Below the pieces are notes generated by a model. It was not told the DNA's origin and ran no database searches. It was given only the letters and a program-made list of their open reading frames with translations. Made by a program: the position numbers and the translations under genes. From Sulfurimonas sp. (GTDB taxonomy: Bacteria; Campylobacterota; Campylobacteria; Campylobacterales; Sulfurimonadaceae), in NCBI GenBank assembly GCA_965243085.1, contig CBDETZ010000003.1, forward strand, positions 29,720 to 93,719: 64,000 bases of DNA, written 5' to 3'. Shown in pieces: positions 11,309 through 54,533 of this stretch (position 1 is its first letter; every line of letters starts with the position of its first letter).

Positions 11309-11569
11309 AGACTTCTTACAAAACTCCTATATACCTGCAGAGAGCTAAGAAGTACTAAAATTGTGTAAAACAAATTTTTATTCCTAGCCTAAGCTAAGGG
11401 TAAAATATTTTTTCATGTAAGGTTAGTACTTATTATCCCTTCCCAGGACACTTTATAGAGAGCATTACTCAGAGTTAAAGAACCCCAAGCATAGCTTGGC
11501 TACGCTTGTGAACATTGATTAAAACTCTCTATAAAGTGCTAAGGCATATAGGAGCTTTAGAAGAACTCT
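11309..11569 (+). mobile_element. MITE-A, diverged old copy
   Basis: Left IR agacttcttacaaaactcc, degenerate right IR, act TSD, several internal substitutions and deletions. Confidence 0.8.
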
Positions 11570-12307
11570 ACTCTATCGTATAGAAAATTTCTTGGCTATT
11601 CTAAAGAATAATGAGATATTTACTTTTAAGTATTCTAACTAACAAAACTGAAAATTCGCTTTATATCCCGAATAAATTCTATTTTTATTACTGATGTTAC
11701 GATAATCTAAACCTTCAAATTTACAAAAGGTGACATATTAAAAATAGATGGCATTAAAAATGCTTAAAATATATATGAAGCAATTAGAAGATATGTACAT
11801 AAATTTCGCAATCAGTTCATTTAGCAAGATAGAGATGACAAAACTTTCAAAAGTAACAGGTAATAGTCATGATATTTTCACAAAGCATCTACTATTAAAT
11901 GATTCTCTTGATGATGAAAAGACTTTGTGGAAATCAATAAAACCATTTTTAAGAGATTATGAGAATGAAGACAATGCTTGTATTATTATCGATGATATGC
12001 TTATGCATAAGCCTTGGAGTAAAGTAAATGATGTAGTTTGCTGGCATTATGACCATGTGTCACAAAAGATGCAAAAAGGTATCTTAATGCTAAATTTTCA
12101 TTATACAGATGCTACAGGTATATCTATCCCTTTGGGATATGAAATTATCACAAAAACTGAAAATAAGTGGAGTGAGGAACATCAGAAGAATATTAAAAAA
12201 TCTCTCTTTAGTAAAAATGAAATAATGCAAGATAAACTTCAAATTTTACATCACAATAATGAAGTGAAATATAAATATATTTTATTTGATAAATGGTTTT
12301 CAAGTAT

Positions 12308-12471
12308 AGACTTCTCCTAAAACCTTTTTCAATATTTGGATATATGTCCCTACGCAGTTACTTTAATTTAAAATATAAGAGTAATTTCAATATTACTAAA
12401 ATATAATCTTGCTAAAGCCTATAAACAGGTATCTAAATGGAGGTATTACTATGAGCTTTTAGGAGAAGTCC
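12308..12471 (+). mobile_element. MITE-B (164 bp)
   Basis: IR agacttctcctaaaa/ttttaggagaagtcc, tat TSD. Confidence 0.92.
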
Positions 12472-12699
12472 TATTAAGAATCTACTTTTTATAGAAGAAG
12501 AACTAAACAAGAAGTTTGTATGTCCAATAAAAAGTAATAGAAAAATAGCACTCACTTTAGAAGAAAGAAATAGACTTCTTGCAAAACTCCTATATACCAC
12601 AGAGAGCTAAGAAGGACTAAAATTGTGTAAAACAAATTTTTATTCCTAGCCTAAGCTAAGGGTAAAATATTTTTTTATGCAAGGTTAGTCCTTACTATC

Positions 12700-14319
12700 C
12701 AGCAATTCTAACCCAACACCAAAAATCACCACTCAATCATTTTTACAACATTAAAAAATAATTAACTAAAAACTTTTTATAGCCGTTAGTATTTTTTACG
12801 ACTTCAATATCTTCTGTTTTTATTTCAATAAAGCTCCAATTATCACTATTAATGGGAGTAATAGTATTTTTGACATAGGTATAGCCTTGTGAATATTTAC
12901 TAGTCCAAATGGATACCATCTATATAGCCTTTTATCATTGTTTGATAGAGAATATCCCAATCTAAAAAGTAAAAAAATGTTGTGAAAGTATTGATATGGT
13001 TAAAGAATGTTTTTCTCTTGTTTATAAGTCCATATAACTCTTTATAATCATCATCATATGTTAAGCATAGTGTATGAGTTAAGAATGCTAATATGTTAAA
13101 AACAAATAGCAACTCACTTAGTCCTTTTTTGCCGTGTCCAAAGTTATGTTCAAGATTGTAACCTCCTGTTTTTAATGTATTATTATTCTCATTTTCAATC
13201 TTCCATCTAGCACGACCTGCTTCTACAATCTCTTCTACATTTTCATCTTTAATTATATAGTCTGTTATAAAAGCACCACTATAAATTATCTTCCCTTTTA
13301 CCTCTTTAACTTCAACACTACACCAATTTACTTTTATAGGATTCTTTTCTCCTGTAAGTTCTACTTCATGTAGATATTTATAGTTGTAACTCTCTTTTTT
13401 TCTTTGTTTATTTAGTTTAGTAGCTGTTTTAGTATCCATATTACCGAGGTTATCAACCATATGTACAGTTTCATATAATTTTTTATGAGAAGTCTCTTTG
13501 CAGACAAATATATAGTTATACTCTTTCTCTCTTATCTTTTTAATAAGTGAAGTCTTTGAATATAAATCATCGCCCAAGAGTACTAGTTTATATTTTTTAG
13601 CGAGTATATGTGTTTTATCTAACCATCTTTTGGATGCGTTAATCTCACAATCTTGTTTATCATCTCCATCCGTATTTGATATCATCTCTGGTAATAATGG
13701 AAGTATTGTATTGGTCTTTGGTTTTGCTATTATTGGTGTTATTGCACTATGGTAATATTGAAGAGTCTCACTACCTTTAGTATCTGTTTTTTTTCTTGTT
13801 TGACAATGCTCACAATGTATTTTTGTTGAAGAATGGTAGTAAGTGCCATCAAGAAGAACAAGGAGTGTCTTATTATCAAAATAGGTATATTTTTCTAAGG
13901 TTTTTTTTTCTAAAAGTAGTTTATATATTTTATCGAATGTAGGTTGTAGTTTATCACTATCTATATCATCTAATGTATCTCGTACATGATTATCACTTGG
14001 TATCTTTTTTATACCAAATAGTGATTTAGCATTACTTTTACCGCTTTTTGTATTCATTTTTCTTGCAAAGTCTAACCAAGATGGATTTTGAAAATAATAC
14101 ATTGCAAATGCTGATAGTGTTATATCACTCATTGTATATATTAGTTTCTCTTTACTCCTTGAATCTGGTAGTTTTTCAAACTCTTTTGCTATAAGACTTA
14201 TTATCTGTTTTTGAAAATTCATTTATAAATTCTTTACTGCTAATTTTTAAAAGTATAGCAATTCTTATACCTTTTATTTTTTTACAAATTTTTTGGGGTA
14301 GAGTGAATTAGAATTGCTG
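12700..14319 (-). mobile_element. ISNCY-like element, complete (1620 bp)
   Basis: IR cagcaattcta, 9-bp TSD cttactatc; apparently identical copy at 57350-58969. Confidence 0.9.
12900..14222 (-). CDS. DDE transposase (ISNCY-like)
   Basis: LLDGT...HCEHC, KQDCE, LGDDLY, GRARWKIENE motifs; bounded by IRs. Confidence 0.85.
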   Translation of the reverse strand: MNFQKQIISLIAKEFEKLPDSRSKEKLIYTMSDITLSAFAMYYFQNPSWLDFARKMNTKSGKSNAKSLFGIKKIPSDNHVRDTLDDIDSDKLQPTFDKIYKLLLEKKTLEKYTYFDNKTLLVLLDGTYYHSSTKIHCEHCQTRKKTDTKGSETLQYYHSAITPIIAKPKTNTILPLLPEMISNTDGDDKQDCEINASKRWLDKTHILAKKYKLVLLGDDLYSKTSLIKKIREKEYNYIFVCKETSHKKLYETVHMVDNLGNMDTKTATKLNKQRKKESYNYKYLHEVELTGEKNPIKVNWCSVEVKEVKGKIIYSGAFITDYIIKDENVEEIVEAGRARWKIENENNNTLKTGGYNLEHNFGHGKKGLSELLFVFNILAFLTHTLCLTYDDDYKELYGLINKRKTFFNHINTFTTFFYFLDWDILYQTMIKGYIDGIHLD

Positions 14320-15745
14320 CTTACTATCCCTTCCATAGGACACTTTATAGAGAGCCTTACTCAGCGTTAAAGAATCCCAACCCTAGCTTTGGCTACGCTT
14401 GAGAACATTTACCTTGATTAAAACTCTCTATAAAGTGCTAAGCCATATAAGGAGTTTTGCAAGAAGTCTAATAAAGGAAAATATGTTAATATCTCAAGCA
14501 TAGATATAAAGGGTGGTAGTAGTCGGTTGATATATCTTGAAGCTTATAAAAAACCTCTAAGACTTATCAAGCAAGTGGTCAAAAACGGCGATGATGGCGA
14601 ATCTACTTATTTATATCTTGTTACTAATGATATAGACTTATCTTTCAATCAGGTACTTGAAATCTACAAAAGACGGTGGAAAATAGAGGAATATCATAAA
14701 TCTTTAAAACAAAATTTAAAAATAGAACACTCTCCAACAAAAGTTGAAATATCACAAAGAAATCATATACACCACCCTAATCCATTAATAACAAAAGTAT
14801 AAAAAAGGAACAATTATTGCTTTAGTTACAGAAAAACAAAGTGATAATAAAATGGCAATAAAATCAAGAGATAAATTAGCACATAAGCGTTCAAGAAAAG
14901 GCTATGCAAAAATAGCTGAATCAAATAAACTTTTAGAGTTACTATCAAGAGTTCCAGACCATCGTAAAGGTCAAGGGAAACGGCATAAACTAGAACATAT
15001 TTTATATCTAGCTATATTAGCTGGACTAATGGGAGCTACAGATTACAAACAAATCTCTATTTGGATAGATAAACATGTCCAAAAAGAAGAAGTAAAAAAA
15101 CTTCTAGGTGTAGAATTTATAATAACACCAAAAAGAAGTGCTGTATCAGATATACTTGCAAAAGTTGATAGTGAGGCAGTAGAACTTTTGTTTAGAGAAT
15201 GGATAAGAATTTATGTCGATACTACAGGAAAACATCTAAGCGTAGATGGTAAAGTGATGAATGGTAGTAGATATAAAGACCAAAAGGCTGTAGAAGTTGT
15301 TGGTGCAGTTCTATCAGAGATAGGTGTAGTTATTGCTCATCAAAAAATTGCAGAAAAATCAAATGAAATACCTGCTTTACAAGCTATGATAGCAGAGCTT
15401 GGAGATGAATTTCTCTTTACCTTTGATGCGATGAACACACAAAAAAACTCTTGATTCTATTGAGCAAAGTGGTTCAAAGTATATTGCTAAAGTTAAAGAT
15501 AACCAAAAAACACTTCTTGATAAAATAGATGAAATATCAAGAGAGATAAAACCATCAAGCACTTATAAAGCTAAACCAATCCAGCAGTCTAATGAGCGGA
15601 TAAATAGAGAGGTATTTGTATATCAACCGACTACTTTTTATCATAATGAAATCACCCATGTTCGCTCAATCATTAAAACCATTAAAAAAATACACAAGAC
15701 AAATCATAAAACTGGAGAAGTGACAAATAGTACTAGAATTTAGTT

Positions 15746-16004
15746 AGACTTCTTGCAAAACTCCTATATACCTTAGCACTTTATAGAGAGTTTTAATCAA
15801 AGTAAATGTTCTCAAGCGTAGCCAAACGGTTGGGGTTCTTTAACGCTGAGTAAGACTCTCTATAAAGTGTCCTATGGAAGGGATAGTAAGTACTAACCTT
15901 ACATAAAAAAATATTTTACCCTTAGGCTAGGAATAAAAACTTGTTTTACACAATTTTAGTACTTCTTAGCTCTCTGCGGCATATAGGAGTTTTGCAAGAA
16001 GTCT
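15746..16004 (-). mobile_element. MITE-A (short variant, ~259 bp)
   Basis: IR agacttcttgcaaaactcc, gtt TSD. Confidence 0.92.
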
Positions 16005-16221
16005 GTTCTGTATAGCAAATTTTCGTGAAAATGCGGAGTTCTTTCATGATAAAATTTTACTCCATTGGAAGGTAGAAACAATGCACCAATACAAAGATAA
16101 TACACTTTTAGAAGATGACCATAATGCTCATCTAAATCCATTTTTAATGACAATTATCAGAAGCATTATTTTAAATATCTTGCACCTAAATGGTACAAAA
16201 TCTATACAAGAACAACTCATT

Positions 16222-16490
16222 AGACTTCTTGCAAAACTCCTATATACCACAGAGAGCTAAGAAGGACTAAAATTGTGTAAAACAAATTTTTATTCCTAGC
16301 CTAAGCTAAGGGTAAAATATTTTTTTGTGCAAGGTTAGTACTTACTATCCCTTCCATAGGACACTTTATAGAGAGCCTTACTCAGCGTTAAAGAACCCCA
16401 ACCCTAGCTTTGGCTACGCTTGAGAACATTTACCTTGATTAAAACTCTCTATAAAGTGCTAAGCCATATAAGGAGTTTTGCAAGAAGTCT
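16222..16490 (+). mobile_element. MITE-A (269 bp)
   Basis: IR agacttcttgcaaaactcc, att TSD. Confidence 0.95.
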
Positions 16491-16758
16491 ATTAACAATA
16501 GATGGGATTTAGATGACTCTATCGCTTAACTCTTTAAATTTAGTTTTTAGTGGATTATGGTGCATGTACACTTATCTGTTCGTGGTTTTATAAAACTTGA
16601 GAAACTTCGATTAAACTATAAAATGAACCACTTTGCCATTAAGGAAAAAATATATATTGAGGCTCTCAAAGTCGCCTACCAAAAAGTTGAAGAATTACAA
16701 GTTGCTTAGATTTGTAGCACTTCTTAAACTTTATGAATTTAGATTATCGTAACATCAG

Positions 16759-18014
16759 CACCCCAATCCATTAATAACTAGAAATTAAAAGTGGAATAAT
16801 TATTGCTTGCTTTTGAGAAAAATAAGGTGATAAGAAAATGGCAATAAAAGCAAGAGATAAATTAGCACAAAAGCGTTCAAGAAAAGGCTATGCAAAAATA
16901 GCTGAATCAAATAAACTTTTAGAGTTACTATCAAGAGTTCCAGACCATCGTAAAGGTCAAGGTAAACGGCATAAATTAGAACATATCTTATATCTAGCTA
17001 TATTAGCTGGACTAATGGGAGCTACAGATTACAAACAAATCTCTATTTGGATAGATAAACATGTCCAAAAAGAAGAAGTAAAAAAACTTCTAGGTGTAGA
17101 ATTTATAATAACACCAAAAAGAAGTGCTGTATCAGATATACTTGCAAAAGTTGATAGTGAGGCAGTAGAACTTTTGTTTAGAGAATGGATAAGAATTTAT
17201 GTCGATACTACAGGAAAACATCTAAGCGTAGATGGTAAAGTGATGAATGGTAGTAGATATAAAGACCAAAAGGCTATACAAGTTGTTGGTGCAGTTCTAT
17301 CAGAGATAGGTGTAGTTATTGCTCATCAAAAAATTGCAGAGAAATCAAATGAAATACCTGCTTTACAAGCTATGATAGCAGAGCTTGGAGATGAATTTCT
17401 CTTTACCTTTGATGCGATGAACACACAAAAAAACTCTTGATTCTATTGAGCAGAGTGGTTCAAAATATATTGCTAAAGTTAAAGGTAACCAAAAAACACT
17501 TCTTGATAAAATAAATGAAATATCAAGAGAGATAAAACCATCAAGCACTTATAAAGCTAAACCAATCCAGCAATCTAATGAGTGGATAAATAGAGAAGTA
17601 TTTATATATGAACCAACTACTTTTTATCATAATGAAATTACCCATGTTCGCTCAATCATTAAAACCATTAAAAAAATACACAAGACAAATCATAAAACTG
17701 GAGAAGTGACAAATAGTACTAGAATTCAGTTCTGTATAGCAAATTTTCGTGAAAATGCGGAGTTCTTTCATGATAAAATTTTACTCCATTGGAAGGTAGA
17801 AACAATGCACCAATACAAAGATAATACACTTTTAGAAGATGACCATAATGCTCATCTAAATCCATTTTTAATGACAATTATCAGAAGCATTATTTTAAAT
17901 ATCTTGCACCTAAATGGTACAAAATCTATACAAGAACAACTCATTAACAATAGATGGGATTTAGATGACTCTATCGCTCAACTCTTGAAATTTAGTTTTT
18001 AGTGGATTGTGGTG
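16759..18014 (+). mobile_element. ISAs1 type A, complete
   Basis: IRs; TSD taacatcag/caacatcag duplicates the IS701 tip; ORFs 16838-17440 and frameshifted continuation to 18002. Confidence 0.92.
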
Positions 18015-18024
18015 CAACATCAGT

Positions 18025-18293
18025 AGACTTCTTGCAAAACTCCTTATATGGCTTAGCACTTTATAGAGAGTTTTAATCAAGGTAAATGTTCTCAAGCGTA
18101 GCCAAAGCTAGGGTTGGGGTTCTTTAACGCTGAGTAAGGCTCTCTATAAAGTGTCCTATGGAAGGGATAGTAAGTACTAACCTTGCACAAAAAAATATTT
18201 TACCCTTAGCTTAGGCTAGGAATAAAAATTTGTTTTACACAATTTTAGTCCTTCTTAGCTCTCTGTGGTATATAGGAGTTTTGCAAGAAGTCT
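18025..18293 (-). mobile_element. MITE-A
   Basis: IRs, agt TSD. Confidence 0.95.
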
Positions 18294-18320
18294 AGTTATG
18301 AAAATAACAGAAGTAAAAAT

Positions 18321-18484
18321 AGACTTCTCCTAAAACCTTTTTCAATATTTGGATATATGTCCCTACGCAGTTACTTTAATTTAAAATATAAGAGTAATTT
18401 CAATATTACTAAAATATAATCTTTCTAAAGCCTATAAACAGGTATCTAAAGTGAGGTATTACTATGAGCTTTTAGGAGAAGTCC
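18321..18484 (+). mobile_element. MITE-B
   Basis: IRs, aat TSD. Confidence 0.92.
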
Positions 18485-19020
18485 AATATTAAAAGAACTT
18501 AAAGAGATTCAGAACCATGGTAAAAGCTCACAAGAACGAATGCGAGCATTAGGTATTTTATTGTCAAATGATGGGAAAAAGAGCCAAGAAATAGCAGATA
18601 TTTTTGAAGTGACTCAACGAACAGTTTTCCAATGGTTTAAAGATTTTAGAAGTGAGGGAATTGTAAGTTTAAAGTGCAGTCAAGGAAGGGGTAGAAAAAG
18701 ACTATTAAATACAAATAATCACTTAAAAATCATCCAACAACATATAGAAACATATCCTAACCAACCTAAAAAGGCATTTGCACTTAGTGTCCAAGAGATA
18801 GGGATAGAAATGAGCTATAGAACATTCAAAAGGTTTTTAAAAAAGCACTCAATTTAAGCTACAAACGAATAAGAAAAGATCCTTCAAAAACCCCAGATAG
18901 TGAATTTTATAATACTAAACGCAAAGACCTTCAGACCTTAGAATTATTCGCTAAGAAAGGGATTGTATATCTCTACTACTTTGATGAAAGTGGATTTAAT
19001 TTGACACCTAACTTACCTTA

Positions 19021-19130
19021 GAGACTGTGAAAGAACTGTCATTCCGTACTTGATACGGAATCTAAAAGCCCTTAAACGCTAGATTCTGAATCAAGTTCAG
19101 AATGACTTTTTAGAGTTCTTTCACAGTCTC
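19021..19130. mobile_element. MITE-D (110 bp, REP-pair core)
   Basis: 17-bp perfect IR gagactgtgaaagaact, tta TSD; inverted copy at 61507-61616. Confidence 0.9.
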
Positions 19131-19275
19131 TTATGCTTGGTCATCCATTACTAAGACAATTGCAATACCCGCAAGAATGTCTAAAAAGCTTAATGTACTT
19201 GGCTTTTTGAATATTAATAACTCTAAACTTTTTGCATCAACAACTTATGATAGAGTAGATACAGAAGTTGTTATT

Positions 19276-19543
19276 AGACTTCTTGCAAAACTCCTCTATA
19301 CCTCAGAGAGCTAAGAAGGACTAAAATTGTGTAAAACAAATTTTTATTCCTAGCCTAAGCTAAGGGTAAAATATTTTTTTATGCAAGGTTAGTACGTACT
19401 GTCCCTTGCATAGGACACTTTATAGAGAGCCTTACTCAGCGTCAAAGAACCCCAACCGTAGCTTTGGCGACGCTTGAGAACATTTACTTTGATTAAAACT
19501 CTCTATAAAGTGCTAATGCATATAGGAGTTTTGCAAGAAGTCT
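19276..19543 (+). mobile_element. MITE-A (subtype b)
   Basis: IRs, att on both flanks. Confidence 0.95.
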
Positions 19544-19724
19544 ATTTTCTTTTTACCTCCATACTCTCCACAGCTAAACCCTATAGAACAACTTTGGAAA
19601 TTTATGGAGTATTACTGGATAGAACTTGATGCTTATAAGTCTACTGAAAATATGAAAAACTATGTTGAAAAAATTATTATTGGTTATGGAAGTAGATATG
19701 AGATTGAATTTGTTTAGCTACTTA

Positions 19725-20124
19725 TACTCACAAAAAATGCTTCTTCCAGTTTTTTAGACTTACTGGTAAAACTTCATATTGACTTGCTATCTCATTTATA
19801 GTTTTAGCACCCTCTAAAACTAATTTTGCTTTAAATTCTGCACTATATGTTTTTCTTTTTGTACTCATAATTATTTATCCCTATTTTTTGTATTCTTATA
19901 CTAGACTTCTCCTAAAACCTTTTTCAATATTTGGATATATGTCCCTACGCAGTTACTTTAATTTAAAATATAAGAGTAATTTCAATATTACTAAAATATA
20001 ATCTTGCTAAAGCCTATAAACAGGTATCTAAATTGAGGTATTACTATCAGCTTTTAGGAGAAGTCCACTATCATTTGGAATAAGAATGCTTGGTTAATTG
20101 GTTTGTTTTTCTAGGGACATTATA
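19725..20124 (-). pseudogene. IS3 type B left-end fragment carrying a MITE-B
   Basis: Copy of 1626-1858 plus an insertion. Confidence 0.8.
19903..20066 (+). mobile_element. MITE-B
   Basis: IRs, act TSD. Confidence 0.92.
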
Positions 20125-20127
20125 TAA

Positions 20128-20170
20128 AAGATAATCCTATTAATTGAAGTTATTTCTATTCTACTACTTA
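20128..20170. repeat. MITE-C terminal fragment
   Basis: Matches the last ~43 bp of 27443-27593. Confidence 0.7.
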
Positions 20171-39849: not shown

Positions 39850-40245
39850 CTTATTAACTCAACTTTGGCACACACCATATTCTTCATACTGGATACTACT
39901 CCAGAATCTTTGAATTACAATGTTGTCAATACTTCTCCCTTTTCCATCCATTGATATTTGAATATCATATTTTTAATATGTCTACATGGGCTGACGCTGT
40001 GTATTATGACCCTTCCTTGCTATTGATTATATCAGATTTAGAGTATGGACTTAATGCTTCATCCATTGTATTAGATAACTTTGAAGATAATACTTTCTTC
40101 GTGTTCCAGTCAATTATAGCAGCTAAATATATATGCCCTTTTTCTAATGTGAGGTATGTGATATCAGTAGAGCATACTTTATTTGGAGTATCTATTATTA
40201 CTTGATTTTTATCATTCTTAAATTTTTTTAATAAGTATGGATATT
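39850..40245 (-). pseudogene. Decayed IS3-family transposase core
   Basis: STDITYL...YLAAIIDW...SNTMD with stops and deletions. Confidence 0.8.
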
Positions 40246-40566
40246 CACCCCAATCCATTAATAACTAGAAATTAAAAGTGGAATAATTATTGCTTGCTTT
40301 TGAGAAAAACAAGGTGATAAGAAAATGGCAATAAAAGCAAGAGATAAATTAGCACAAAAGCGTTCAAGAAAAGGCTATGCAAAAATAGCTGAATCAAATA
40401 AACTTTTAGAGTTACTATCAAGAGTTCCAGACCATCGTAAAGGTCAAGGTAAACGGCATAAATTAGAACATATCTTATATCTAGCTATATTAGCTGGACT
40501 AATGGGAGCTACAGATTACAAACAAATTTCTATTTGGATAGATAAACATGTTCAAAAAGAAGAAGT

Positions 40567-40835
40567 AGACTTCTTGCAAAACTCCTATATACCACAGAGA
40601 GCTAAGAAGGACTAAAATTGTGTAAAACAAATTTTTATTCCTAGCCTAAGCTAAGGGTAAAATATTTTTTTGTGCAAGGTTAGTACTTACTATCCCTTCC
40701 ATAGGACACTTTATAGAGAGCCTTACTCAGCGTTAAAGAACCCCAACCCTAGCTTTGGCTACGCTTGAGAACATTTACCTTGATTAAAACTCTCTATAAA
40801 GTGCTAAGCCATATAAGGAGTTTTGCAAGAAGTCT
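40567..40835 (+). mobile_element. MITE-A
   Basis: IRs, agt TSD. Confidence 0.95.
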
Positions 40836-41271
40836 AGTAAAAAAACTTCTAGGTGTAGAATTTATAATAACACCAAAAAGAAGTGCTGTATCAGATATAC
40901 TTGCAAAAGTTGACAGTGAGGCAGTTGAACTTTTGTTTAGAGAATGGATAAGAATTTATGTCGATACTACAGGAAAACATCTAAGCGTAGATGGTAAAGT
41001 GATGAATGGTAGTAGATATAAAGACCAAAAGGCTATACAAGTTGTTGGTGCAGTTCTATCAGAGATAGGTGTAGTTATTGCTCATCAAAAAATTGCAGAG
41101 AAATCAAATGAAATACCTGCTTTACAAGCTATGATAGCAGAGCTTGGAGATGAATTTCTCTTTACCTTTGATGCGATGAACACACAAAAAAACTCTTGAT
41201 TCTATTGAGCAAAGTGGTTCAAAGTATATTGCTAAAGTTAAAGATAACCAAAAAACACTTCTTGATAAAAT

Positions 41272-42187
41272 AGACTTCTTGCAAAACTCATTTTCCAGCA
41301 ACCTCAAATCCACGGTCAAAATTAACTAATCCACATATCAGATTGAAGCGAAGATTGAACCTTTTTCTACGGTTACGATATTTCTGTTTAAGGATTTGAA
41401 AAGTCTTTAATTTAGCATTGATATGTTCAACACATATGCGAGCTGAAGCTTCTCTTTTATGTTGATTTTTTTGTGTATCAGTTAATGGATGTAGCTTTGA
41501 TTTCTTATATGGTATTTGAGTGTTATTATGTTGCTTTTTAATACCAAGATAGCCTAAATCTACATAGATACAAGTTTGAGGTTTCACAGGTAGATCACTC
41601 TGTTTAAAGAGTTTAAAATCATGAGTAGTACCTTTGCATGTATGAGCACAAATAATACGTTCATCCTTGTCAATAACGATTTGCCCTTTTAGTGTATGGT
41701 TTCTTTTCTTCCCTGAGTAGTAATCTCTTTGCTTTTTTTTGGTCGTTGTATGGGGGACTCTGTAGCATCAATGACGATAAACTCTAAGTCCATATCATCT
41801 CCATATAAAGCACGTTTACTTGGTAATGAAAACTTTCCAGATTTTATTAAAACATCTTCAACATCTCTTACTATTCGAGAAGCTGTAGATTCACTTACTC
41901 CATAATCAAAGCCAATATGTTCTAAGGTTCTATATTCTCTGTAATAACTTAACATTAATAGTACTTTTTCTTTTGAATCTAAACTTTTTCTACCACCAAC
42001 TCCATGGTTTTTAGTTCTCTCTTTTTCATAGGCTATAAATACTAAAAGCATTTCATTAAATGTATCTTTATTTACACCAATAAGACGCTTAAAATTCTTT
42101 GGTTCTTTCTTCTGTAATTTTTCATATTTATTCATATCAATCTGATAGCATTTTTAGTTCCTACTTTTAGAGTTTTGCAAGAAGTCT
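41272..42187 (-). mobile_element. IS5 ISL2-like element, complete
   Basis: IRs, aat TSD; copy of 22492-23407. Confidence 0.93.
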
Positions 42188-43021
42188 AATAGATGAAATA
42201 TCAAGAGAGATAAAACCATCAAGCACTTATAAGGCTAAAGCAATCCAGCAGTCTAATGAGCGGATAAATAGAGAGGTATTTGTATATCAACCGACTACTT
42301 TTTATCATAATGAAATCACCCATGTTCGCTCAATCATTAAAACCATTAAAAAAATACACAAGACAAACCATAAAACAGGAGAAGTAACAAACAGCACTAG
42401 TATTCAGTTCTGTATAGCAAATTTTCGTGAAAATGCGGAGTTCTTTCATGATAAAATTTTACTCCATTGGAAGGTAGAAACAATGCACCAATACAAAGAT
42501 AATACACTTTTAGAAGATGACCATAATGCTCATCTAAATCCATTTTTAATGACAATTATCAGAAGCATTATTTTAAATATCTTGCACCTAAATGGTACAA
42601 AATCTATACAAGAACAACTCATTAACAATAGATGGGATTTAGATGACTCTATCGCTCAACTTTTGAAATTTAGTTTTTAGTGGATTGTGGTGGGTAATAT
42701 ATATGAAGTCACAGTTTAAATCTTGTTCTAAGATAGTAGAGTACATGGCAAGGTATACCCATAAGTCTGCTATTGCTAACTCTAGGATTATCTCCATAGA
42801 TAACAACATCATAAAATTCAAATACAAAGATTATAAAGATGATTCTAAACTAAATAGCGATGAGTTCATTAGACTTCTTGCAAAACTCCTTATATGGCTT
42901 AGCACTTTATGAGACCACTGCACAGTATAATCTAACAAAGCAATCTATTTAAAGGCATTAAAAGCACTTTTCAGCTAAAATAACATCACTAAGAAGAGGT
43001 ACAAAGTGGCATTTAAAGATA

Positions 43022-44015: not shown

Positions 44016-44284
44016 AGACTTCTTGCAAAACTCCTATATACCACAGAGAGCTAAGAAGGACTAAAATTGTGTAAAACAAATTTTTATTCCTAGCCTAAGC
44101 TAAGGGTAAAATATTTTTTTGTGCAAGGTTAGTACTTACTATCCCTTCCATAGGACACTTTATAGAGAGCCTTACTCAGCGTTAAAGAACCCCAACCCTA
44201 GCTTTGGCTACGCTTGAGAACATTTACCTTGATTAAAACTCTCTATAAAGTGCTAAGCCATATAAGGAGTTTTGCAAGAAGTCT
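44016..44284 (+). mobile_element. MITE-A
   Basis: IRs, att TSD. Confidence 0.95.
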
Positions 44285-45562
44285 ATTATCTCCCAACAAA
44301 CCACCTTCGCAAATACTCACGATATAGACACAGTAAAAACATTTGTAAAAGATATAGATGGAATGAAAGCTCTTTATGCTGATAAAGCATATAACTCAAA
44401 AGATATAGATACTTTTTTAGAAAGTGAAAATATAGAAAATATGGTATGTCTCAAAGAGAAACAAACTCTAAGGCAAGAACAGATTAAGCAGCAAAGAAAA
44501 GATGAAAAACCTAAACATAAGATTAGAGCTAAAGTTGAACATAGGTTTGCAGATATAAAAACTCAGATGAAAGGCTCAACTACAAAATTTATAGGACTCG
44601 TTAGAAATAATATGAATTTTACCCTTACCTGTATAGCTACTAATCTTAGATTATTAGGACAAAGACAAATAAGACAAAGATTAGAAGTAATTAGATGAAT
44701 AATATAGAGCTAAAGAGCTTTAATAGACTAAAAAAGCTCCTAAAAATGACTGAATCTAATTTTATTGAAGATGGATTTTTTTAAATATTTGAAAAAATAG
44801 GATATATGAGTACTTTTTAATTATGCAGTCGGCTCTTTATAGAGAGTTTTAATCAAGGTAAATGTTCTCAAGCGTAGCCAAAGCTAGGGTTGGGGTTCTT
44901 TAACGCTGAGTAAGGCTCTCTATAAAGTGTCCTATGGAAGGGATAGTAAGTACTAACCTTGCACAAAAAAATATTTTACCCTTAGCTTAGGCTAGGAATA
45001 AAAATTTGTTTTACACAATTTTAGTCCTTCTTAGCTCTCTGTGGTATATAGGAGTTTTGCAAGAAGTCTATTAAAAGGTTTCTCTACCACATACCACCTA
45101 AAAGGTTCTTTCGCATAAGATATTATGGAGCTATACAAAGAGTAGCAAAGATGGAAAGTATAAAGACCATAGAGATACAACCACAACACACAAAAGTAAA
45201 ACCAAAGTGTAAGAAGTGTACCTGTGAGGATATACAAACTGTTGTAGTTGTAGATAGATACACGAGAGTAGTCCAAGGCTTAATGACACCAAGAATATTA
45301 TCCCAAAGAGAGGAGAAAAGCTTTAATGATAGTGGCTAATTTAAACCAAAAAAAGAATCAAACTAGAACTAAAATAACTACACTAAAATTGACAATACTA
45401 CAACTATTATTAAAAAATGACAAAGAGCATAATAATAGCTTTGAAGCTATACTATTGTTGCATGTTCAAGAGAAAATATTAGAAAAACACCATATACTCA
45501 CAAGCCCAAAACCTACTAAAACACTGCCATCCACTCACAAACTCCATAGCTTGCATTCGTTC

Positions 45563-45660: not shown

Positions 45661-45693
45661 GTAAAATAACAAATACAATACATAGGAAATATT

Positions 45694-46744: not shown

Positions 46745-46746
46745 AT

Positions 46747-47813
46747 AGACTTCTTGCAAAACTCATTTTCCAGCAACCTCAAATCCACGGTCAAAATTAA
46801 CTAATCCACATATCAGATTGAAGCGAAGATTGAACCTTTTTCTACGGTTACGATATTTCTGTTTAAGGATTTGAAAAGTCTTTAATTTAGCATTGATATG
46901 TTCAACACATATGCGAGCTGAAGCTTCTCTTTTATTTTGATTTTTTTGTGTATCAGTTAATGGATGTAGCTTTGATTTCTTATATGGTATTTGAGTGTTA
47001 TTATGTTGCTTTTTAATACCAAGATAGCCTAAATCTACATAGATACAAGTTTGAGGTTTCACAGGTAAATCACTCTGTTTAAAGAGTTTAAAATCATGAG
47101 TAGTACCTTTGCATGTATGAGCACAAATAATACGTTCATCCTTGTCAATAACGATTTGCCCTTTTAGTGTATGGTTTCTTTTCTTCCCTGAGTAGTAATC
47201 TCTTTGCTTTTTTTTGGTCGTTGTATGGGGGACTCTGTAGCATCAATGACGATAAACTCTAAGTCCATATCATCTCCATATAAAGCACGTTTACTTGGTA
47301 ATGAAAACTTTCCAGATTTTATTAAAACATCTTCAACATCTCTTACTATTCGAGAAGCTGTAGATTCACTTACTCCATAATCAAAGCCAATAGACTTCTT
47401 GCAAAACTCCTATATGCATTAGCACTTTATAGAGAGTTTTAATCAAAGTAAATGTTCTCAAGCGTCGCCAAAGCTACGGTTGGGGTTCTTTGACGCTGAG
47501 TAAGGCTCTCTATAAAGTGTCCTATGCAAGGGACAGTACGTACTAACCTTGCATAAAAAAATATTTTACCCTTAGCTTAGGCTAGGAATAAAAATTTGTT
47601 TTACACAATTTTAGTCCTTCTTAGCTCTCTGAGGTATAGAGGAGTTTTGCAAGAAGTCTAATATGTTCTAAGGTTCTATATTCTCTGTAATAACTTAACA
47701 TTAATAGTACTTTTTCTTTTGAATCTAAACTTTTTCTACCACCAACTCCATGGTTTTTAGTTCTCTCTTTTTCATAGGCTATAAATACTAAAAGCATTTC
47801 ATTAAATGTATCT
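46747..47813 (-). mobile_element. IS5 ISL2-like element, 5'-truncated, with MITE-A
   Basis: Right IR at 46747; homology to 22492-23407 stops at ~47813. Confidence 0.9.
47392..47659 (-). mobile_element. MITE-A (subtype b)
   Basis: IRs, aat TSD. Confidence 0.95.
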
Positions 47814-48051
47814 CTTATTATAACACTAAGCATTTAGGGATGCGAAGCACTTGGAAATTGTAAGATTTTATGACAAAATGCAATATTTCTAAACTTTTCG
47901 TAAATATTTGCTTAAAATATTCTTATGCCTGAAATGTATCTTAGTCCTTAGAGGCTGTAATAAAGAAAAGGCTCATGTTTTAATACTGAAAAGAATAATA
48001 GGCTATATGCCTGAATAAGAGAATAGTTAGAAAACATAAAAGGATAAAATT

Positions 48052-49025
48052 ATGACTAATATAAATGACATAACATATATTGGCGTTGATATTGCAAAAG
48101 ATAAAATTGATATTTGTATAAATAATGGTAATTCCTCAGGTCATGTATATAGCTCCTACTCCAATAATTTGGATGGTTTTCTAAACTTTTTTCTTTTAGC
48201 TAATAGTATTAATCACTTAAAAAATATAAGGATAGGTCTTGAAGCAACAAGCACCTACATGATAGCATTACAAAAATACTTAGACCTTCATGAAATAAAA
48301 TATATATTAATCAATCCAAATAAATTACATCATTTCATAAAATACAAACATAAAGAAAGTAAAACAGATAAGCTTGATAGTTACTACATCTCAGATTATA
48401 TAATGACATTACGAGATCGAAACTTTAATAGTACTCACTCATCAAGAAAAACGCTTTTTCAGTCTTATAACGCTTATATTAACCTAATCACAACAACAGA
48501 AACAAGGCTAAAAGGTCTTAACGATAGTATCTTAAGCAATGATTTCACAAGCCAAGCTTTACAAAACCAAATCAAAAATTTGAAACTAGCCTTAACTAAG
48601 ACAAAAAATGTAGCACAAAAAGATTTCCTAGAAACTCTCAAAATTTCTATGCCTGAATAAAAAATGATTTGGTTGGTGTAGGAGATAAAACCTTGATGGC
48701 AGTTTTACCAATAATCTACGATATCTCAAATAAATATTCTCTTAACCAACTTCAAAGCTTAGTAGGTCTTGACCCAGTATATAAAAATAGTGGTTCATCA
48801 GTAAATAAAAAACAAAGAATAAGTAAAAAAGGAAATTCAAGAGTACGAGCGGTCCTTTACATGTCCGCAGTATCCTCAATCCGTTCAAATGCAGACCTAT
48901 CACTAAAATACAATCGTCTATTAGACAATGGCAAGCCTCCTATGTTAGCACTAGTCGCAATCATGGCACATATATTTCGAGCAATAGTAAAGAAACTAAA
49001 CTACTACAAAGCTCTCAATGAATAG
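48052..49025 (+). pseudogene. IS110-family DEDD recombinase/transposase, frameshifted
   Basis: YIGVDIAKD, GLEATS, KTDKLD (RuvC-like) then GVGDKT...GLDP...SG.S...ISKKGNSRVRAVLY (Transposase_20-like); stop at 48660, continuation in the -1 frame. Confidence 0.9.
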
Positions 49026-49134
49026 TTAGATTTCTAATGCTTACTAGATTTTAGCTCTTCATTGCTTTCTCTTGGTTTAGTAAGTATTAGAAACTTAATT
49101 AACTTTAAGTACTTTAAAATAATAGGAAACATAA

Positions 49135-49536
49135 ATGCCAACAAAAACAACAAAACCTGAAAGTTCACAAGAAGATATAAAAGATTATTCTCCTCAAAAT
49201 CTAAGCCAAACAAACCCTGCTTTATTTATGGAAAGATATAACAAAAATGAAATTTCTCTTGCTGGTAAAGTAATTGACTTAACAACATCTGACCCTAAAC
49301 CAAAATACGAAAAAGATGGTAGTACACAAGTTATAAATGAAGATGGCAGTATGGCTTTTTGGGAGCCTTTTTACTCAGCTGAAATTATCTTTGAAGGTGG
49401 TTCTATGAGAATGAATTTGCAGTCTTCTATTTATCAAGGTTTGGTAGTAGGTAAAAGATACCTCTTTGAGGGAATGATGGGCTTAGAGTTTAAAAAAATT
49501 AATCCTAAGTTCTACAATGCAACTTTAATAATGTAG
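49135..49536 (+). CDS. Putative single-stranded DNA-binding (OB-fold) protein
   Basis: 133 aa, beta-strand pattern, RBS agga; sits upstream of an RCR Rep. Confidence 0.45.
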   Translation: MPTKTTKPESSQEDIKDYSPQNLSQTNPALFMERYNKNEISLAGKVIDLTTSDPKPKYEKDGSTQVINEDGSMAFWEPFYSAEIIFEGGSMRMNLQSSIYQGLVVGKRYLFEGMMGLEFKKINPKFYNATLIM

Positions 49537-49545
49537 GTTTCCTTT

Positions 49546-49851
49546 ATGCTTTTGAAGAATTTTTCAAGGGCTGAACAAGATTACATTATATTTATGGATA
49601 GTGGTTCAAGTGTTCCTTATCATATGGAAGACGTTCCTTACTATCCTATCCCAGTAATCAAGTTAGAAACTCTTGAATATGAAGACAAGCTTTATATCAA
49701 GTCTAACTCTTTTTATTGCGTTGGTACACGCTTACACTCTTTTGTAAGAAAAATATCAGCACAAGACTATAGAAAAATAAAATCAGAAATAGAAGCTAAA
49801 AAGAAGTCTAATAGCATAGTTGGTAAACAATTAGTTATGGACTTTTCTTAA
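49546..49851 (+). CDS. Hypothetical protein
   Basis: 101-aa ORF in a compact operon. Confidence 0.6.
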   Translation: MLLKNFSRAEQDYIIFMDSGSSVPYHMEDVPYYPIPVIKLETLEYEDKLYIKSNSFYCVGTRLHSFVRKISAQDYRKIKSEIEAKKKSNSIVGKQLVMDFS

Positions 49852-49875
49852 AATTCTATATTTTCGTTTATCTCT

Positions 49876-49898
49876 CCCCCCGTGGTTTAACAAGGGGG
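49876..49898 (+). other. Putative double-strand origin/nick hairpin
   Basis: ccccccgtggtttaacaaggggg, a GC stem with TTAACA in the loop, 70 bp upstream of Rep. Confidence 0.65.
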
Positions 49899-49968
49899 TA
49901 TCAGTAGCCATTAAAAATGAACAAGTCTCTATCGGTAGCCAAATACAAAAAGGAAGAAAAACAAACCT

Positions 49969-52832
49969 ATGAATATAATCTCTCAAACAGTAGACACAAT
50001 AAAAACTCATTACACAATATCAAAAAATATAAATGATGAAGACTTTCTTTTCTATTCTAAAATAATCAAAACTCTAATATCTTTAAAAAAAGACTCACAA
50101 GAACTAAAAAATAACTATGGTTCTATAAAAACAGTTAATTATACTTTTGGTGATTTTAGATTTAACATACTACCAACCTCAATAACTGGTTTCTCCATCG
50201 TAATGCAAAATTCAGATTTCCAATTAGCATTAAGACAATCTAAAAGTAAAATAAATGCTTCACCTCTCATAAAAGCCGAATTTAGAGCAGAATTTCTAGC
50301 AAGATTAGGCTATATAAAATGTTTAGAAATAGTGAATAATTTTGTAAAAGAGTACATTTTAACTGACTGTGAAATAACTATTAGTGAAATACATCTAGCA
50401 TCAGACATACAAGGCTACGATTTTAAGCTATCTCACTTCGCTCAAATGAAAACACGCATGAGAACTGGTAATACTCATGATGAAGAAACTTTAGAAGCTT
50501 CTGCTAGCGTTCATGGTACTATTACTACCTTTACTGGCTTTACATTCGGTAAAGGGGCACCACAATCCACTAAAAATTAAATTTCAAGAGTTGAGCGATA
50601 GAGTCATCTAAATCCCATCTATTGTTAATGAGTTGTTCTTGTATAGATTTTGTACCATTTAGGTGCAAGATATTTAAAATAATGCTTCTGATAATTGTCA
50701 TTAAAAATGGATTTAGATGAGCATTATGGTCATCTTCTAAAAGTGTATTATCTTTGTATTGGTGCATTGTTTCTACCTTCCAATGGAGTAAAATTTTATC
50801 ATGAAAGAACTCCGCATTTTCACGAAAATTTGCTATACAGAACTGAATACTAGTGCTGTTTGTTACTTCTCCTGTTTTATGGTTTGTCTTGTGTATTTTT
50901 TTAATAGTTTTTATGATTGAGCGAACATGGGTAATTTCATTATGATAAAAAGTAGTTGGTTCATATATAAATACTTCTCTATTTATCCACTCATTAGATT
51001 GCTGGATTGGTTTAGCTTTATAAGTGCTTGATGGTTTTATCTCTCTTGATATTTCATTTATTTTATCAAGAAGTGTTTTTTGGTTACCTTTAACTTTAGC
51101 AATATATTTTGAACCACTCTGCTCAATAGAATCAAGAGTTTTTTTGTGTGTTCATCGCATCAAAGGTAAAGAGAAATTCATCTCCAAGCTCTGCTATCAT
51201 AGCTTGTAAAGCAGGTATTTCATTTGATTTCTCTGCAATTTTTTGATGAGCAATAACTACACCTATCTCTGATAAAACTGCACCAACAACTTCTATAGCC
51301 TTTTGGTCTTTATATCTGCTACCATTCATCACTTTACCATCTACGCTTAGATGTTTTCCTGTAGTATCGACATAAATTCTTATCCATTCTCTAAACAAAA
51401 GTTCTACTGCCTCACTATCAACTTTTGCAAGTATATCTGAGACAGCACTTCTTTTTGGTGTTATTATAAATTCTACACCTAGAAGTTTTTTTACTTCTTC
51501 TTTTTGAACATGTTTATCTATCCAAATAGAGATTTGTTTGTAATCTGTAGCTCCCATTAGTCCAGCTAATATAGCTAGATATAAAATATGTTCTAGTTTA
51601 TGCCGTTTCCCTTGACCCTTACGATGGTCTGGAACTCTTGATAGTAACTCTAAAAGTTTATTTGATTCAGCTATTTTTGCATAACCTTTTCTTGAACGCT
51701 TATGTGCTAATTTATCTCTTGCTTTTATTGCCATTTTCTTATCACCTTGTTTTTCTCAAAAGCAAGCAATAATTATTCCACTTTTAATTTCTAGTTATTA
51801 ATGGATTGGGGTGGTAAAGGGGATTACCTACTAAGGATTTACGATAAAACAAAGGAAATTAAAACTTTCAAACATAAATCATTTGCAAAAACTCATTTAT
51901 GGCAAAATAATAAAAATTATAATCCTGATTTGAAAGTATGGCGTTTAGAAATACAAATAAGAAGAGCTAAATTAAAGAAGATGGTTAATTCAAATGGAAA
52001 CACAATGGATAACTATCACAACTGTTTAAACGGAATACCTGATTTATGGTCAAAAGCTCTAGAAGATTATGAAATAAAAGATGTACCAAGAGATAAAACT
52101 TCTGACTTATTCCACGGTGATAGAGTTCAAAAAAATGGTAAAACAGTACTTCTTACAAAACATTCAATAACTAAAATATTTAAACGCTCTCCAAGTCTAT
52201 ATTTTTGGGAAAAACTAAAAACATGGAACCATAACGATAGATTTAACAAAGACATAAAAAAAATAACATGGACTACTAAAAACATAAATATAACTCCTTT
52301 ATATTATTTTGATTACTTAAAACAATTTGGATACTTACCCATCTCAACAGCTCCTAAAACTCCTAATCATGGTTCACAAGAATATGTAAATAATTCTATA
52401 AAGTCTCTATATTCCACACTAGCAAAGCATAAAGGTTCAGTTACAAAAAAAACATTAATAGAAGCCTTTAAAATTGCAAACGAGGACAGTATAAAAAGAA
52501 ATGATGTCTCTCTATTAGAAGATAGTTTTAATAAGCAGTTGGACTGGATGGAACTTGTAGATGGTCATGTTCATTCAGGTGTTCTAAACACACCAGACTA
52601 CAAGTCCTTAGAAACTGAAATAGTAAATGTTATCTCAACTTGTGATAATCACATTAAAAATGTTTTATATTCAGAAGATATTTTACTTAGAATAGAAGCT
52701 CGTATGCACTCTCTCAAACATACACCAGATAAAGTTATTTACAAAGACCTTGACTATCTTGACTCTATGACTACCCGATTAGAAGCAAGACTAGCATTCC
52801 ACCCTATGGAGTACAATCATGCTTTCCGCTAA
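49969..52832 (+). pseudogene. Rep_trans-family rolling-circle initiator interrupted by ISAs1
   Basis: Removing 50558-51822 gives FTFGKGDYLLRIYDKTKE...VWRLEIQIRR; also the ISEIHLASD motif. Confidence 0.82.
50558..51813 (-). mobile_element. ISAs1 type A
   Basis: IRs, perfect 9-bp TSD gtaaagggg. Confidence 0.93.
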
Positions 52833-52965
52833 CGAGCTATTAGTCATTAAAGAATTAGCAATCTTCGGAGAAAAACATAATATCAATAAAACAAATATAT
52901 CAAAAAAAATAGATTTAACTCAAAAAACAGTAAGAAATATTATAAAAAAATTAAAGGAACTCTAA
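52819..52965 (+). CDS. Small winged-HTH DNA-binding protein (48 aa, absent from the ORF track)
   Basis: MLSANELLVIKELAIFGEKHNINKTNISKKIDLTQKTVRNIIKKLKEL; overlaps the Rep stop and ends 1 nt before the next ATG. Confidence 0.65.
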   Translation: MLSANELLVIKELAIFGEKHNINKTNISKKIDLTQKTVRNIIKKLKEL

Positions 52966-52966
52966 A

Positions 52967-53356
52967 ATGTCAAAATTGAATGAACAATCTTCAAGATGGG
53001 ACACAATTAAATATTTTAAAAAAGAAGATTTTGATTGTAGATGTGGCTGTGGTCTCAATAATATTGACTACGCCTTAGTGTTCAAATTAGATAGCGTCCG
53101 TAAGCTATCAGGTATCCCTATCTTTGTTAATTCAGCATGTAGGTGTCATCCACATAATAAAATTATAGGAAGTACTGTAGGCTCTTCACACCCTAAAGGA
53201 CTAGCAATTGATATTCGAATTAGAACCCCCACCCAAAGATTTAAGATCTTAAATGCACTTATAAAAGTAGGTTTTTCTCGTATAGGAATTTACAGAAATT
53301 TTATACATATTGATTTAGACTTATCTAAAGTTCAAAATCTAATCTGGTATAGATAA
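52967..53356 (+). CDS. Peptidase M15A-type D-Ala-D-Ala metallopeptidase (endolysin-like)
   Basis: YFKKEDFDCRCGCG, VNSACRC..HN, SSHPKGLAID, IGIYRNFIHID. Confidence 0.88.
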   Translation: MSKLNEQSSRWDTIKYFKKEDFDCRCGCGLNNIDYALVFKLDSVRKLSGIPIFVNSACRCHPHNKIIGSTVGSSHPKGLAIDIRIRTPTQRFKILNALIKVGFSRIGIYRNFIHIDLDLSKVQNLIWYR

Positions 53357-53379
53357 TTATTTAAAAAAGGATACAAAAA

Positions 53380-53640
53380 ATGCCAAATTTATTCACAATG
53401 GTTCTTCCATATTTATTAGAAATGCTCTTAGCATATATCAAAAGTTCAGATACAACACAAGACGATAAAGTACTAAAGATAGTACAAGAAGGTGCAAGAT
53501 ACTTAGCTCCATGCCCTAATAACAGTTTACAATACTTTGAGGCTGATAAAATTGCAAATGCAACTATGACGACTAAATCTATTGATATTGTACTTCCATC
53601 ATTTGATAATGATGATGGTTTAGCTGATTGGGGTGAATAA
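53380..53640 (+). CDS. Small phage-like protein with hydrophobic N-terminus
   Basis: RBS aagga; follows the peptidase; holin or virion role not established. Confidence 0.6.
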   Translation: MPNLFTMVLPYLLEMLLAYIKSSDTTQDDKVLKIVQEGARYLAPCPNNSLQYFEADKIANATMTTKSIDIVLPSFDNDDGLADWGE

Positions 53641-54533
53641 AACTAACATTTCTCATTCTTATGGAATTATAGATTATCCCGCTCCGTTCTCACTTATATA
53701 CATTTTGGAATTTTATCTTGTTACTAAGACTGTGTTCGTTGCTCTTTTAAATTTTAATTTCCAGGATACTAGGAGGGAAGATTATCTAAATTATTATTTT
53801 GGAAATATACTTAGACTTCTTGATACTAGTAAAGGTAGTAGTGTTAGTTTACCACTTCCTCTTTCTCATATTTCTATTTCTCGTTATAGAATTATTGATT
53901 TAAAAAATATTTCTCTTTCCAATAAAGAAAATTTAGGTTCATACTTGAGCTCTGGAAAGCCTATTTCTAATTATTCTCACGGTAGTGGTTATTCAAGGGA
54001 ATTTCATGACTATTATCATTAGACTTCTTGCAAAACTCCTCTATACCTCAGAGAGCTAAGAAGGACTAAAATTGTGTAAAACAAATTTTTATTCCTAGCC
54101 TAAGCTAAGGGTAAAATATTTTTTTATGCAAGGTTAGTACGTACTGTCCCTTCCATAGGACACTTTATAGAGAGCCTTACTCAGCGTCAAAGAACCCCAA
54201 CCGTAGCTTTGGCGACGCTTGAGAACATTTACTTTGATTAAAACTCTCTATAAAGTGCTAAGGCATATAGGAGTTTTGCAAGAAGTCTATTATTACGAGC
54301 ATGGTTATATTTTAGAAAGGTATGGACTCGAGGGTAGTCTAATTTCTTGTAATGGTGGTCATGATATTTTTTATATTTTTGAAGATTATGTTACTGGTAC
54401 TAGATGTTCCCTTTTAGAGGATCAGCAAATTTATTTTTATAGCTTGGATGTAACATATAAAATAACAAAAAAAAAGACAGACTGCTGCATTCTAGTATGT
54501 TGTGAACCTGACAAGTATGAACTAAGAACTTAA
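53633..54533 (+). pseudogene. Hypothetical protein (~210 aa) interrupted by MITE-A
   Basis: DYYH|YYEHGY rejoins in frame across the att TSD. Confidence 0.75.
54021..54288 (+). mobile_element. MITE-A (subtype b)
   Basis: IRs, att TSD. Confidence 0.95.

Follow-up and report, generated by a model that had tools for sequence, protein, structure and literature searches.

A Sulfurimonas MITE with a conserved body of two inverted hairpin modules and a possible role in RNA processing or 3'-end formation

MITEs (miniature inverted-repeat transposable elements) tend to be viewed as decayed insertion sequences (ISs) whose ends alone are constrained. The window examined here, a stretch of 64,000 nucleotides (nt) from a Sulfurimonas genome of 2.98 Mb and 31% G+C (GenBank assembly GCA_965243085.1, contig CBDETZ010000003.1, C3:29720-93719), is crowded with copies of a 269-bp element, MITE-A, for which this relation is reversed: the ends prove to be interchangeable, whereas the body is conserved. 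The locus raises the question of what this body is and why different transposon ends should keep it.

MITE-A and its partner insertion sequence

The 18-nt terminus AGACTTCTTGCAAAACTC has 28 matches in the window at two or fewer mismatches, against a chance expectation of 0.01. A BLASTN search with the 269-bp query 16222-16490 returned 11 MITE-A copies, in agreement with the first-pass annotation of this DNA, comprising nine full-length copies, one split by an IS and one truncated, together with a further fragment of 45 bp. The copies and two intact copies of the partner IS are distributed as follows.

11309-11569, plus strand: MITE-A, old and diverged copy, 261 bp, ~90% identity
12572-14469, plus strand: MITE-A copy split by a 1.6-kb IS (parts 12572-12700 and 14320-14469)
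15746-16004, minus strand: MITE-A subtype c, 259 bp, two small deletions
16222-16490, plus strand: MITE-A reference copy, master variant (49 identical copies), 269 bp
18025-18293, minus strand: MITE-A master variant
19276-19543, plus strand: MITE-A subtype b, 268 bp, ~95% identity
22492-23407, plus strand: autonomous partner, 916-bp IS5-family IS, AGT duplication
40567-40835, plus strand: MITE-A master variant
41272-42187, minus strand: second 916-bp IS copy, AAT duplication
42871-42914, minus strand: MITE-A right-end fragment, 45 bp
44016-44284, plus strand: MITE-A master variant
44832-45069, minus strand: MITE-A truncated copy, element positions 1-238
47392-47659, minus strand: MITE-A subtype b, within a 916-bp IS copy starting at 46747
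54021-54288, plus strand: MITE-A subtype b

In the reference copy, the terminal repeats occupy positions 1-18 and 252-269, a left hairpin domain ~30-135, a central mini-hairpin ~128-141 and a right hairpin domain ~141-240; stop codons lie in the frames read by eye over the conserved right-domain block. Across the genome, MITE-A is present in 132-135 full-length copies representing 40 sequence variants, and since 49 of these copies are identical, the amplification is recent, as had been proposed from the window together with the older copy at 11309; the three subtype b copies (19276, 47392 and 54021) were likewise borne out. A 3-bp duplication flanks 127 of 132 copies (ATT 63, AAT 37, ACT 10 and AGT 9), and 47 of the 132 have another copy within 2 kb. 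When the copy was removed, 28% of the 132 insertion sites fell inside an open frame of at least 200 codons, compared with 65% of random ANT sites. MITE-A sites are thus depleted from genes, though not excluded from them, an observation that does not discriminate between possible functions.

The autonomous partner is a 916-bp IS with 32 full-length copies in the genome. Its two open reading frames (ORFs), joined at an A8 run, score 171.8 bits against NF033581 (transpos_IS5_4), above the cut-off of 140, which places the IS in the IS5 family. The ends of MITE-A are those of this IS over 18 of 18 bp on the left and 21 bp on the right, and the 3-bp ANT duplication is common to both, as seen in two IS copies that were checked. 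Beyond the termini, BLASTN at word size 7 detected nothing shared between the MITE-A interior and the 916-bp IS. MITEs classically originate by internal deletion of the partner IS, although membership does not depend on such an origin; for the MITE-A interior this derivation was rejected, the similarity being limited to the termini. Because the resemblance to the IS is confined to the terminal 18-21 bp, MITE-A is a genuine MITE with a non-IS body. The IS-matching terminal inverted repeats, the matching duplication and the small size combined with many copies and, in the frames that were read, the lack of a transposase gene are all present, and MITE-A is an IS5-dependent MITE, active or recently active. 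The first-pass annotation had described the ends, a shared 3-bp duplication (found here as ANT) and the unrelated interior in the same sense.

Several copies have been broken by other insertions. One copy of the partner IS (window 46747-47830) is interrupted by the subtype b element at 47392-47659, the MITE having inserted into its own helper. The 1.6-kb IS at 12701-14319 interrupts MITE-A at element position ~120-129 with a 9-bp duplication, CTTACTATC; it has terminal repeats beginning CAGCAATTCTAA and, on the minus strand, a transposase ORF of 440 amino acids whose resemblance to IS4 is weak (26 bits, the cut-off being 152). As a candidate parent of MITE-A it was rejected, being an unrelated element with a duplication of its own. 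A second MITE-A copy, C2:337162-338608, is broken at nearly the same place (~119-129) by a 1.2-kb insert, and the near-identical interruption points may mark a target hotspot.

Fold, covariation and strand polarity of the body

A single MITE-A sequence folds much better than its shuffled counterparts (z ~ -8) on either strand. Since strong folding is expected of any inverted-repeat element, relatives were collected; the genus yielded full-length homologues of 70-82% identity from 12 further genomes, and a different family yielded one from a single genome. The resulting cross-species alignment of 23 sequences gave 89 RNAalifold pairs, 41 of them with double compensatory changes, arranged so that the terminal repeats pair into an outer stem, inside which two long hairpins, left and right, lie on either side of a central mini-hairpin. 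The mini-hairpin, CCC-NNN-GGG, covaries to TCC...GGA in the Sulfurimonas genome of the window, and each of the two domains is a hairpin of ~100 nt. In wider sets free of redundancy, which span three terminal-repeat classes, the right domain has 96.5% of its cells paired and double changes in 18 of 33 pairs, with a covariation score of 0.437 compared with 0.155+-0.010 for shuffles (none of 500 reaching it) and at most 0.18 for slid-partner controls. The corresponding values for the left domain are 94.2% of cells paired, 24 of 33 pairs with double changes and a score of 0.530, compared with 0.181+-0.012 for shuffles (0 of 500) and at most 0.15 for slid-partner controls. Covariation is therefore strong across species in both domains, and significant in the manner generally required of a structured RNA.

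Not every stem drawn from the window alone survives this comparison. The outer 14-bp core stem is paired in 94% of cells across species and stands, whereas the inner stems CTCA/TGAG (67-72% paired) and TAAAG/CTTTG (52-60% paired) are genome-specific and not conserved, and the stem GCGT/ACGC is invariant and hence uninformative. Linked substitutions in subtype b had been taken as evidence for pairing, yet they represent a single lineage event, creating one pair from a T.T mismatch in a register not kept across the family. An AGGAG noted in the terminal repeats is present in this genome's variant and not conserved in relatives. The possibility that some other element ends in the inner 14-bp inverted repeat was discarded, as the repeat was not found outside MITE-A. 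What the module shares is a set of invariant sequences, AAUCAAGGC(R)G ... AGCGUAGC-loop-GCUACGGUGA ... YUAACGCAGAGU, in the internal loops and apex; its unpaired blocks are nearly invariant while the stems change completely.

The two domains differ in the strand on which they fold. The left domain is more stable as the plus strand in 107 of 109 distinct elements (-45.9 versus -35.0 kcal/mol), and the right domain as the minus strand in 108 of 109 (-43.9 versus -32.4 kcal/mol), a bias of ~11 kcal/mol per hairpin that favors the strand reading inward from the nearer end and is present in all three terminal-repeat classes compared. In the consensus helices the ratio of G.U to A.C is 126:7 for the right domain and 120:23 for the left, with two wobble pairs retained in 30-31 of 32 sequences; G.U pairs are thus strand-specific, as in structured RNAs generally. 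The right-domain model also matches the left domain on the opposite strand, and in one clade the two apices, left and right, are exact reverse complements of each other. The body is accordingly a pseudo-dyad of two inverted paralogous hairpin modules. Because the upkeep of palindromes by templated mutation predicts no such asymmetry, the strand bias points to selection on a single-stranded form.

The same module under other ends and without ends

The most conserved block, used as a search pattern, matched 65 loci in reference genomes and a further 101 in metagenomes. Many of these loci have the same two-hairpin body and a total length of 264-277 bp with unrelated terminal repeats, so that at least five unrelated types of ends, with two types of duplication, occur on the same ~270-bp body.

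Class 1 ends: AGACTTCTTGCA; duplication ANT; Sulfurimonas and relatives
Class 2 ends: TTACGCCACC / TTACCGCACC; TA on both sides in 11 of 20; other Campylobacterales
Class 3 ends: AGGGCACCTCTAAAAAC; no duplication evident; Campylobacterota and a Cyclobacteriaceae metagenome-assembled genome (MAG)
Class 4 ends: ACTGACCTTACGCAC; duplication TA; Campylobacterota
Class 5 ends: AAGCATCTAGTTAAAAG; one locus

The terminal repeats other than class 1 were not found in the genome of the window. Derivatives of ~166 bp with the right domain alone also exist, and a covariance model of that domain, R1, has matches in 34 of 401 Campylobacterota genomes (14 of 63 genera, six families). It matches nine times in the 5.5-Mb Cyclobacteriaceae MAG, where the neighbors of the module are ordinary chromosomal genes, and in 6 of 151 genomes of the same order, Cytophagales, that is, in the MAG and five more. 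One Cytophagales genome holds at least 20 copies, each a single module in a MITE of ~175 bp with a further terminal repeat, AAGTACTAGGACA.

The module also occurs without transposon ends. In the genome of the window, a profile search gave two extra matches outside MITEs, located in the spacers between 16S and 23S ribosomal RNA (rRNA) genes of both rRNA operons (C5:14092-14193 and C5:456586-456687), 19 nt upstream of the gene for transfer RNA (tRNA)-Ile and in the sense of the operon. The spacer hairpin, ~105-118 nt long (locus L240 4587-4704, minus strand), is homologous to the right domain of the MITE, with which it shares the basal stem, the apex motif and the internal-loop blocks AAUCAAGGCGG and CUAACGCAGAGUAAAGC, and it has a longer middle helix. 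It lies at the same position in three other Sulfurimonas genomes, and in two further ones it is found upstream of tRNA-Asp in tRNA clusters. A match of the core to an ordinary locus had been named beforehand as grounds for doubting a captured functional module; such a match now exists in the spacer hairpin, and it strengthens the case for capture instead of refuting it.

A second model, R2, describes this form without ends. It is present in 88 of 301 Campylobacterota genomes (19 of 57 genera), mostly as one copy per genome, with 11-13 or more in some, and the copies within one genome can have wholly different stems and the same loops. The sense strand is the more stable one in 28 of 29 and 12 of 12 copies. 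At six loci of another family an extra outer stem encloses the hairpin, with an A-run upstream and a T4-T7 run downstream; a T4-T7 run after the outer stem is found at these six single loci of one family and at about half of 12 copies in one genome.

A few neighboring features may be recorded here. An IS30-family transposase gene (L089 1928-2932) lies 3 kb from one class 3 element of the Cyclobacteriaceae MAG. Body-less elements of 54-55 bp, made of two head-to-head ends, occur for class 2 and class 4 (G344 C1:1844676-1844729 and G380 C28:4042-4096), and they could be acceptors or remnants that bear on recombination between ends and bodies. A mini-element of ~50-55 bp (..ACTTTACTCAGAAAACATGCATTAAGCATATTTCTCTGAGATAT..) is nested in class 2 elements at two different places, the left domain (L049, L050) and the right domain (L057, L076, L078), and looks like a MITE of far smaller size with the hairpins as its insertion sites. 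In the window itself, a ~1.9-kb repeat in four copies (families D2-D8) and other repeats occupy 14770-17950, 40240-42630 and 59530-60720, a repeat-rich region that amounts to a dense pile of nested mobile elements.

Possible function of the module and known systems

The identity of MITE-A as a MITE, its partner IS, the burst, the covariation, the strand asymmetry, the exchange of ends and the homology to the spacer hairpin are observations that we hold with high confidence. The module is older and more widespread than MITE-A, and the following explanation is offered for its presence there. The IS5-family transposase of the 916-bp IS moves MITE-A in trans, and the body, which does not derive from the IS, consists of two inverted module copies with a small hairpin between them, the terminal repeats closing the whole. 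Selection appears to favor folding of the module in one strand, which for each half is the strand reading inward from the nearer end. Because each half folds on its inward-reading strand, a transcript entering from either flank would make a sense hairpin first, whichever way the copy landed. That hairpin might mark where an RNA is processed or ends, with a double-strand-specific RNase or a factor of termination or stability as examples of what could act there, and the face-to-face pair would then insulate the insertion from flanking transcription in both directions. Such insulation could lower the cost of an insertion and could explain why different transposon ends keep the same body. We infer that the single-stranded active form is RNA, and our best guess is that the module is a portable cis-acting hairpin for RNA processing or 3'-end formation that serves in either orientation. 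As for its origin, one may speculate that a convergent intergenic region with two facing hairpins was captured between two IS ends. Taken as a whole, with the RNA-level function included, we consider this explanation to have somewhat less than an even chance of being correct.

Several findings weigh against it: (i) the commonest variant of this genome has a G.G mismatch in the otherwise invariant apex stem, which means that the recent burst did not need a perfect module; (ii) a consistent U-run after the hairpins was not seen inside the MITEs, so that these hairpins do not look like canonical intrinsic terminators; (iii) at 21 of 25 loci without ends, the 3' side of the hairpin lies 8-23 nt past the stop codon of an opposite-strand gene, a placement that fits a small RNA gene or a DNA-level site equally as well as a 3'-end element; (iv) 16 of these 25 loci are one orthologous site of closely related genomes, adjoining a carboxynorspermidine-synthase-like gene, and independent contexts are therefore few; (v) no partner ISs for the other end classes were found with the end patterns in ten genomes, where the search returned MITEs, solo ends and minimal end-to-end pairs and nothing else; and (vi) G.T is the least destabilizing mismatch in DNA too, so that the wobble bias would also fit a role of single-stranded DNA.

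The last of these points leads to the main rival, according to which the module acts as single-stranded or extruded DNA, either as a site used by a recombinase, an HUH-type enzyme or a factor of replication or repair, or by folding so as to join the two transposon ends. The logic would be like that of integron attC sites, whose folding strand is the one complementary to the gene upstream. The strand-specific structure, variable stems around conserved unpaired bases, the placement of copies without ends behind opposite-strand stop codons and the multicopy occurrence in two phyla would all be expected of such a site. It cannot be the binding site of one transposase, since at least five unrelated ends and two duplication types carry the same body; moreover, tandem G.U/U.G and G.U/U.U/U.G motifs, which are typical of RNA helices, occur in nearly all copies, the Sulfurimonas copy without ends is in sense within rRNA and tRNA transcripts, and the core motifs of attC, on our own reading, are arranged differently. 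We regard a DNA-level role as unlikely on balance. The invariance of the loop sequences across two phyla could instead reflect a family of genes for a small RNA that acts in trans, or an RNA that sequesters a protein, whose copies were spread by MITEs, all the more as copies without ends are often antisense to both neighboring genes and, by our own reading, have -10-like boxes 7-20 nt upstream at some loci. Such a family should nonetheless show a conserved promoter at a fixed distance, and none was seen across the terminal-repeat classes; any regulator would be swamped by the more than 130 near-identical copies of one genome, this reading does not explain why two sense copies face each other, and Rfam contains no match. 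This reading we rate as improbable.

The absence of any function has also to be considered. Quasi-palindromes can arise by templated intra-strand mutation and inverted duplication, in which case the copies without ends would be decayed MITE fragments. That the element is a pseudo-dyad, that close relatives inflate covariation counts, that the current master copy tolerates an apex mismatch and that copies without ends are multicopy in some genomes all fit this idea. Strand asymmetry already disfavors it, however: under templated correction G.T should be no more frequent than A.C, which does not agree with the ratios given above, and the halves have opposite polarity in 107-108 of 109 elements of all classes. 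Internal loops, bulges and the two wobble pairs are conserved where correction would erase them, the unpaired blocks stay nearly invariant although the stems change completely, and the spacer copy has the same position in four Sulfurimonas species. We therefore judge a functionless origin to be very improbable.

Returning to a role in RNA, a broader proposal is that the hairpin (AAUCAAGGC(R)G ... AGCRUA(G)C-loop-G(C)UACGUGA ... YUAACGMAGAGU) represents an undescribed class of functional structured RNA of Campylobacterota and Cytophagales, with its own role in RNA processing, 3'-end formation or transcription control, and that several transposon families captured it repeatedly, singly or face-to-face, because it would make insertions harmless or useful in either orientation. 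This proposal is tentative, and we would sooner expect it to fail than to hold. The data point to a widespread new structured nucleic-acid motif and to a concrete case in which a cargo module decides how well non-autonomous transposons succeed. The mirror polarity further predicts that the element should act alike in both orientations and that each half should serve transcripts from its own side only.

The first-pass annotation had proposed that IS5 ends captured a structured module and amplified it recently, and in substance this was right: cross-species covariation and the occurrence of the same module under other ends and without ends agree with it, although its arguments from subtype b, the two inner stems and AGGAG carry little weight. 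No known family accounts for the module. Rfam 15 gave no match above noise for MITE-A, for class 2 and class 3 elements or for copies without ends, and eleven 17-mer matches in viral contigs were attributed to chance, being devoid of further similarity. Signal recognition particle RNA, group II intron domain V, a CsrA-binding site, rrn boxA and attC, each of which short strings in common had suggested, were set aside because of a misfit in arrangement or the lack of an Rfam match.

Searches of the literature for Sulfurimonas MITEs, for MITEs whose ends have been exchanged and for the conserved strings yielded no relevant work, and bcr1 was the sole precedent to emerge. The work on bcr1 is reportedly that of Klevan et al. 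in 2007 and Kristoffersen et al. in 2011, as summarised by Delihas in 2011. According to the sections of that review on this element, bcr1, dispersed in genomes of the Bacillus cereus group, is a MITE-like repeat ~155 bp long that lies between direct repeats and is transcribed into an RNA of two independent stem-loops in a cruciform-like arrangement kept by compensatory changes (PMC3184786). As described in those sections, it is the nearest precedent for MITE-A, being MITE-like and having two stem-loops with compensatory changes, and it differs in its unrelated sequence, its size and the phylum of its host. The same sections mention no set of several unrelated ends, no opposite polarity of the stem-loops and no homologue without ends in an rRNA spacer, unlike what is seen here.

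Better-known repeats resemble MITE-A in part. Correia/NEMIS of Neisseria and ERIC of enterobacteria are small, abundant MITEs that are co-transcribed with their neighbors; the folded Correia RNA is processed by RNase III, and the RNA of such elements is processed or alters mRNA stability. Their long stem comes mainly from the terminal repeats, whereas the conserved structure of MITE-A is internal, independent of the ends and also present at non-MITE loci. REP/REPIN sequences with RAYT are strand-specific GC-rich hairpins in many copies, often as inverted pairs at the 3' ends of genes, and strand-specific multicopy hairpins in inverted pairs are what we observed as well. In contrast to REP/REPIN, the elements described here have terminal repeats and duplications (ANT, TA) typical of DDE transposition, with ends matching an IS5-family IS, and their hairpins are ~100 nt long with conserved internal loops; a link to RAYT was not seen. 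Integron attC sites, which follow closely on genes, form imperfect hairpins of 60-140 nt in which one strand folds, and a single folding strand, conserved unpaired bases and variable stems are shared with the present module. In the folding strand of attC, RYYYAAC at the 5' end pairs with GTTRRRY at the 3' end. Measured against this consensus, the module does not place the two boxes in the attC arrangement, having AUCUAAC on the 3' side, with its AAC unpaired in an internal loop, and no GTTRRRY partner; furthermore, cassette arrays are absent, and on both sides of the elements lie transposon repeats and duplications. What is new in comparison with these known elements is a body that is independent of its ends across transposon types and phyla, the mirror-image strand polarity of its two halves, and a homologue without ends in rRNA and tRNA operons.

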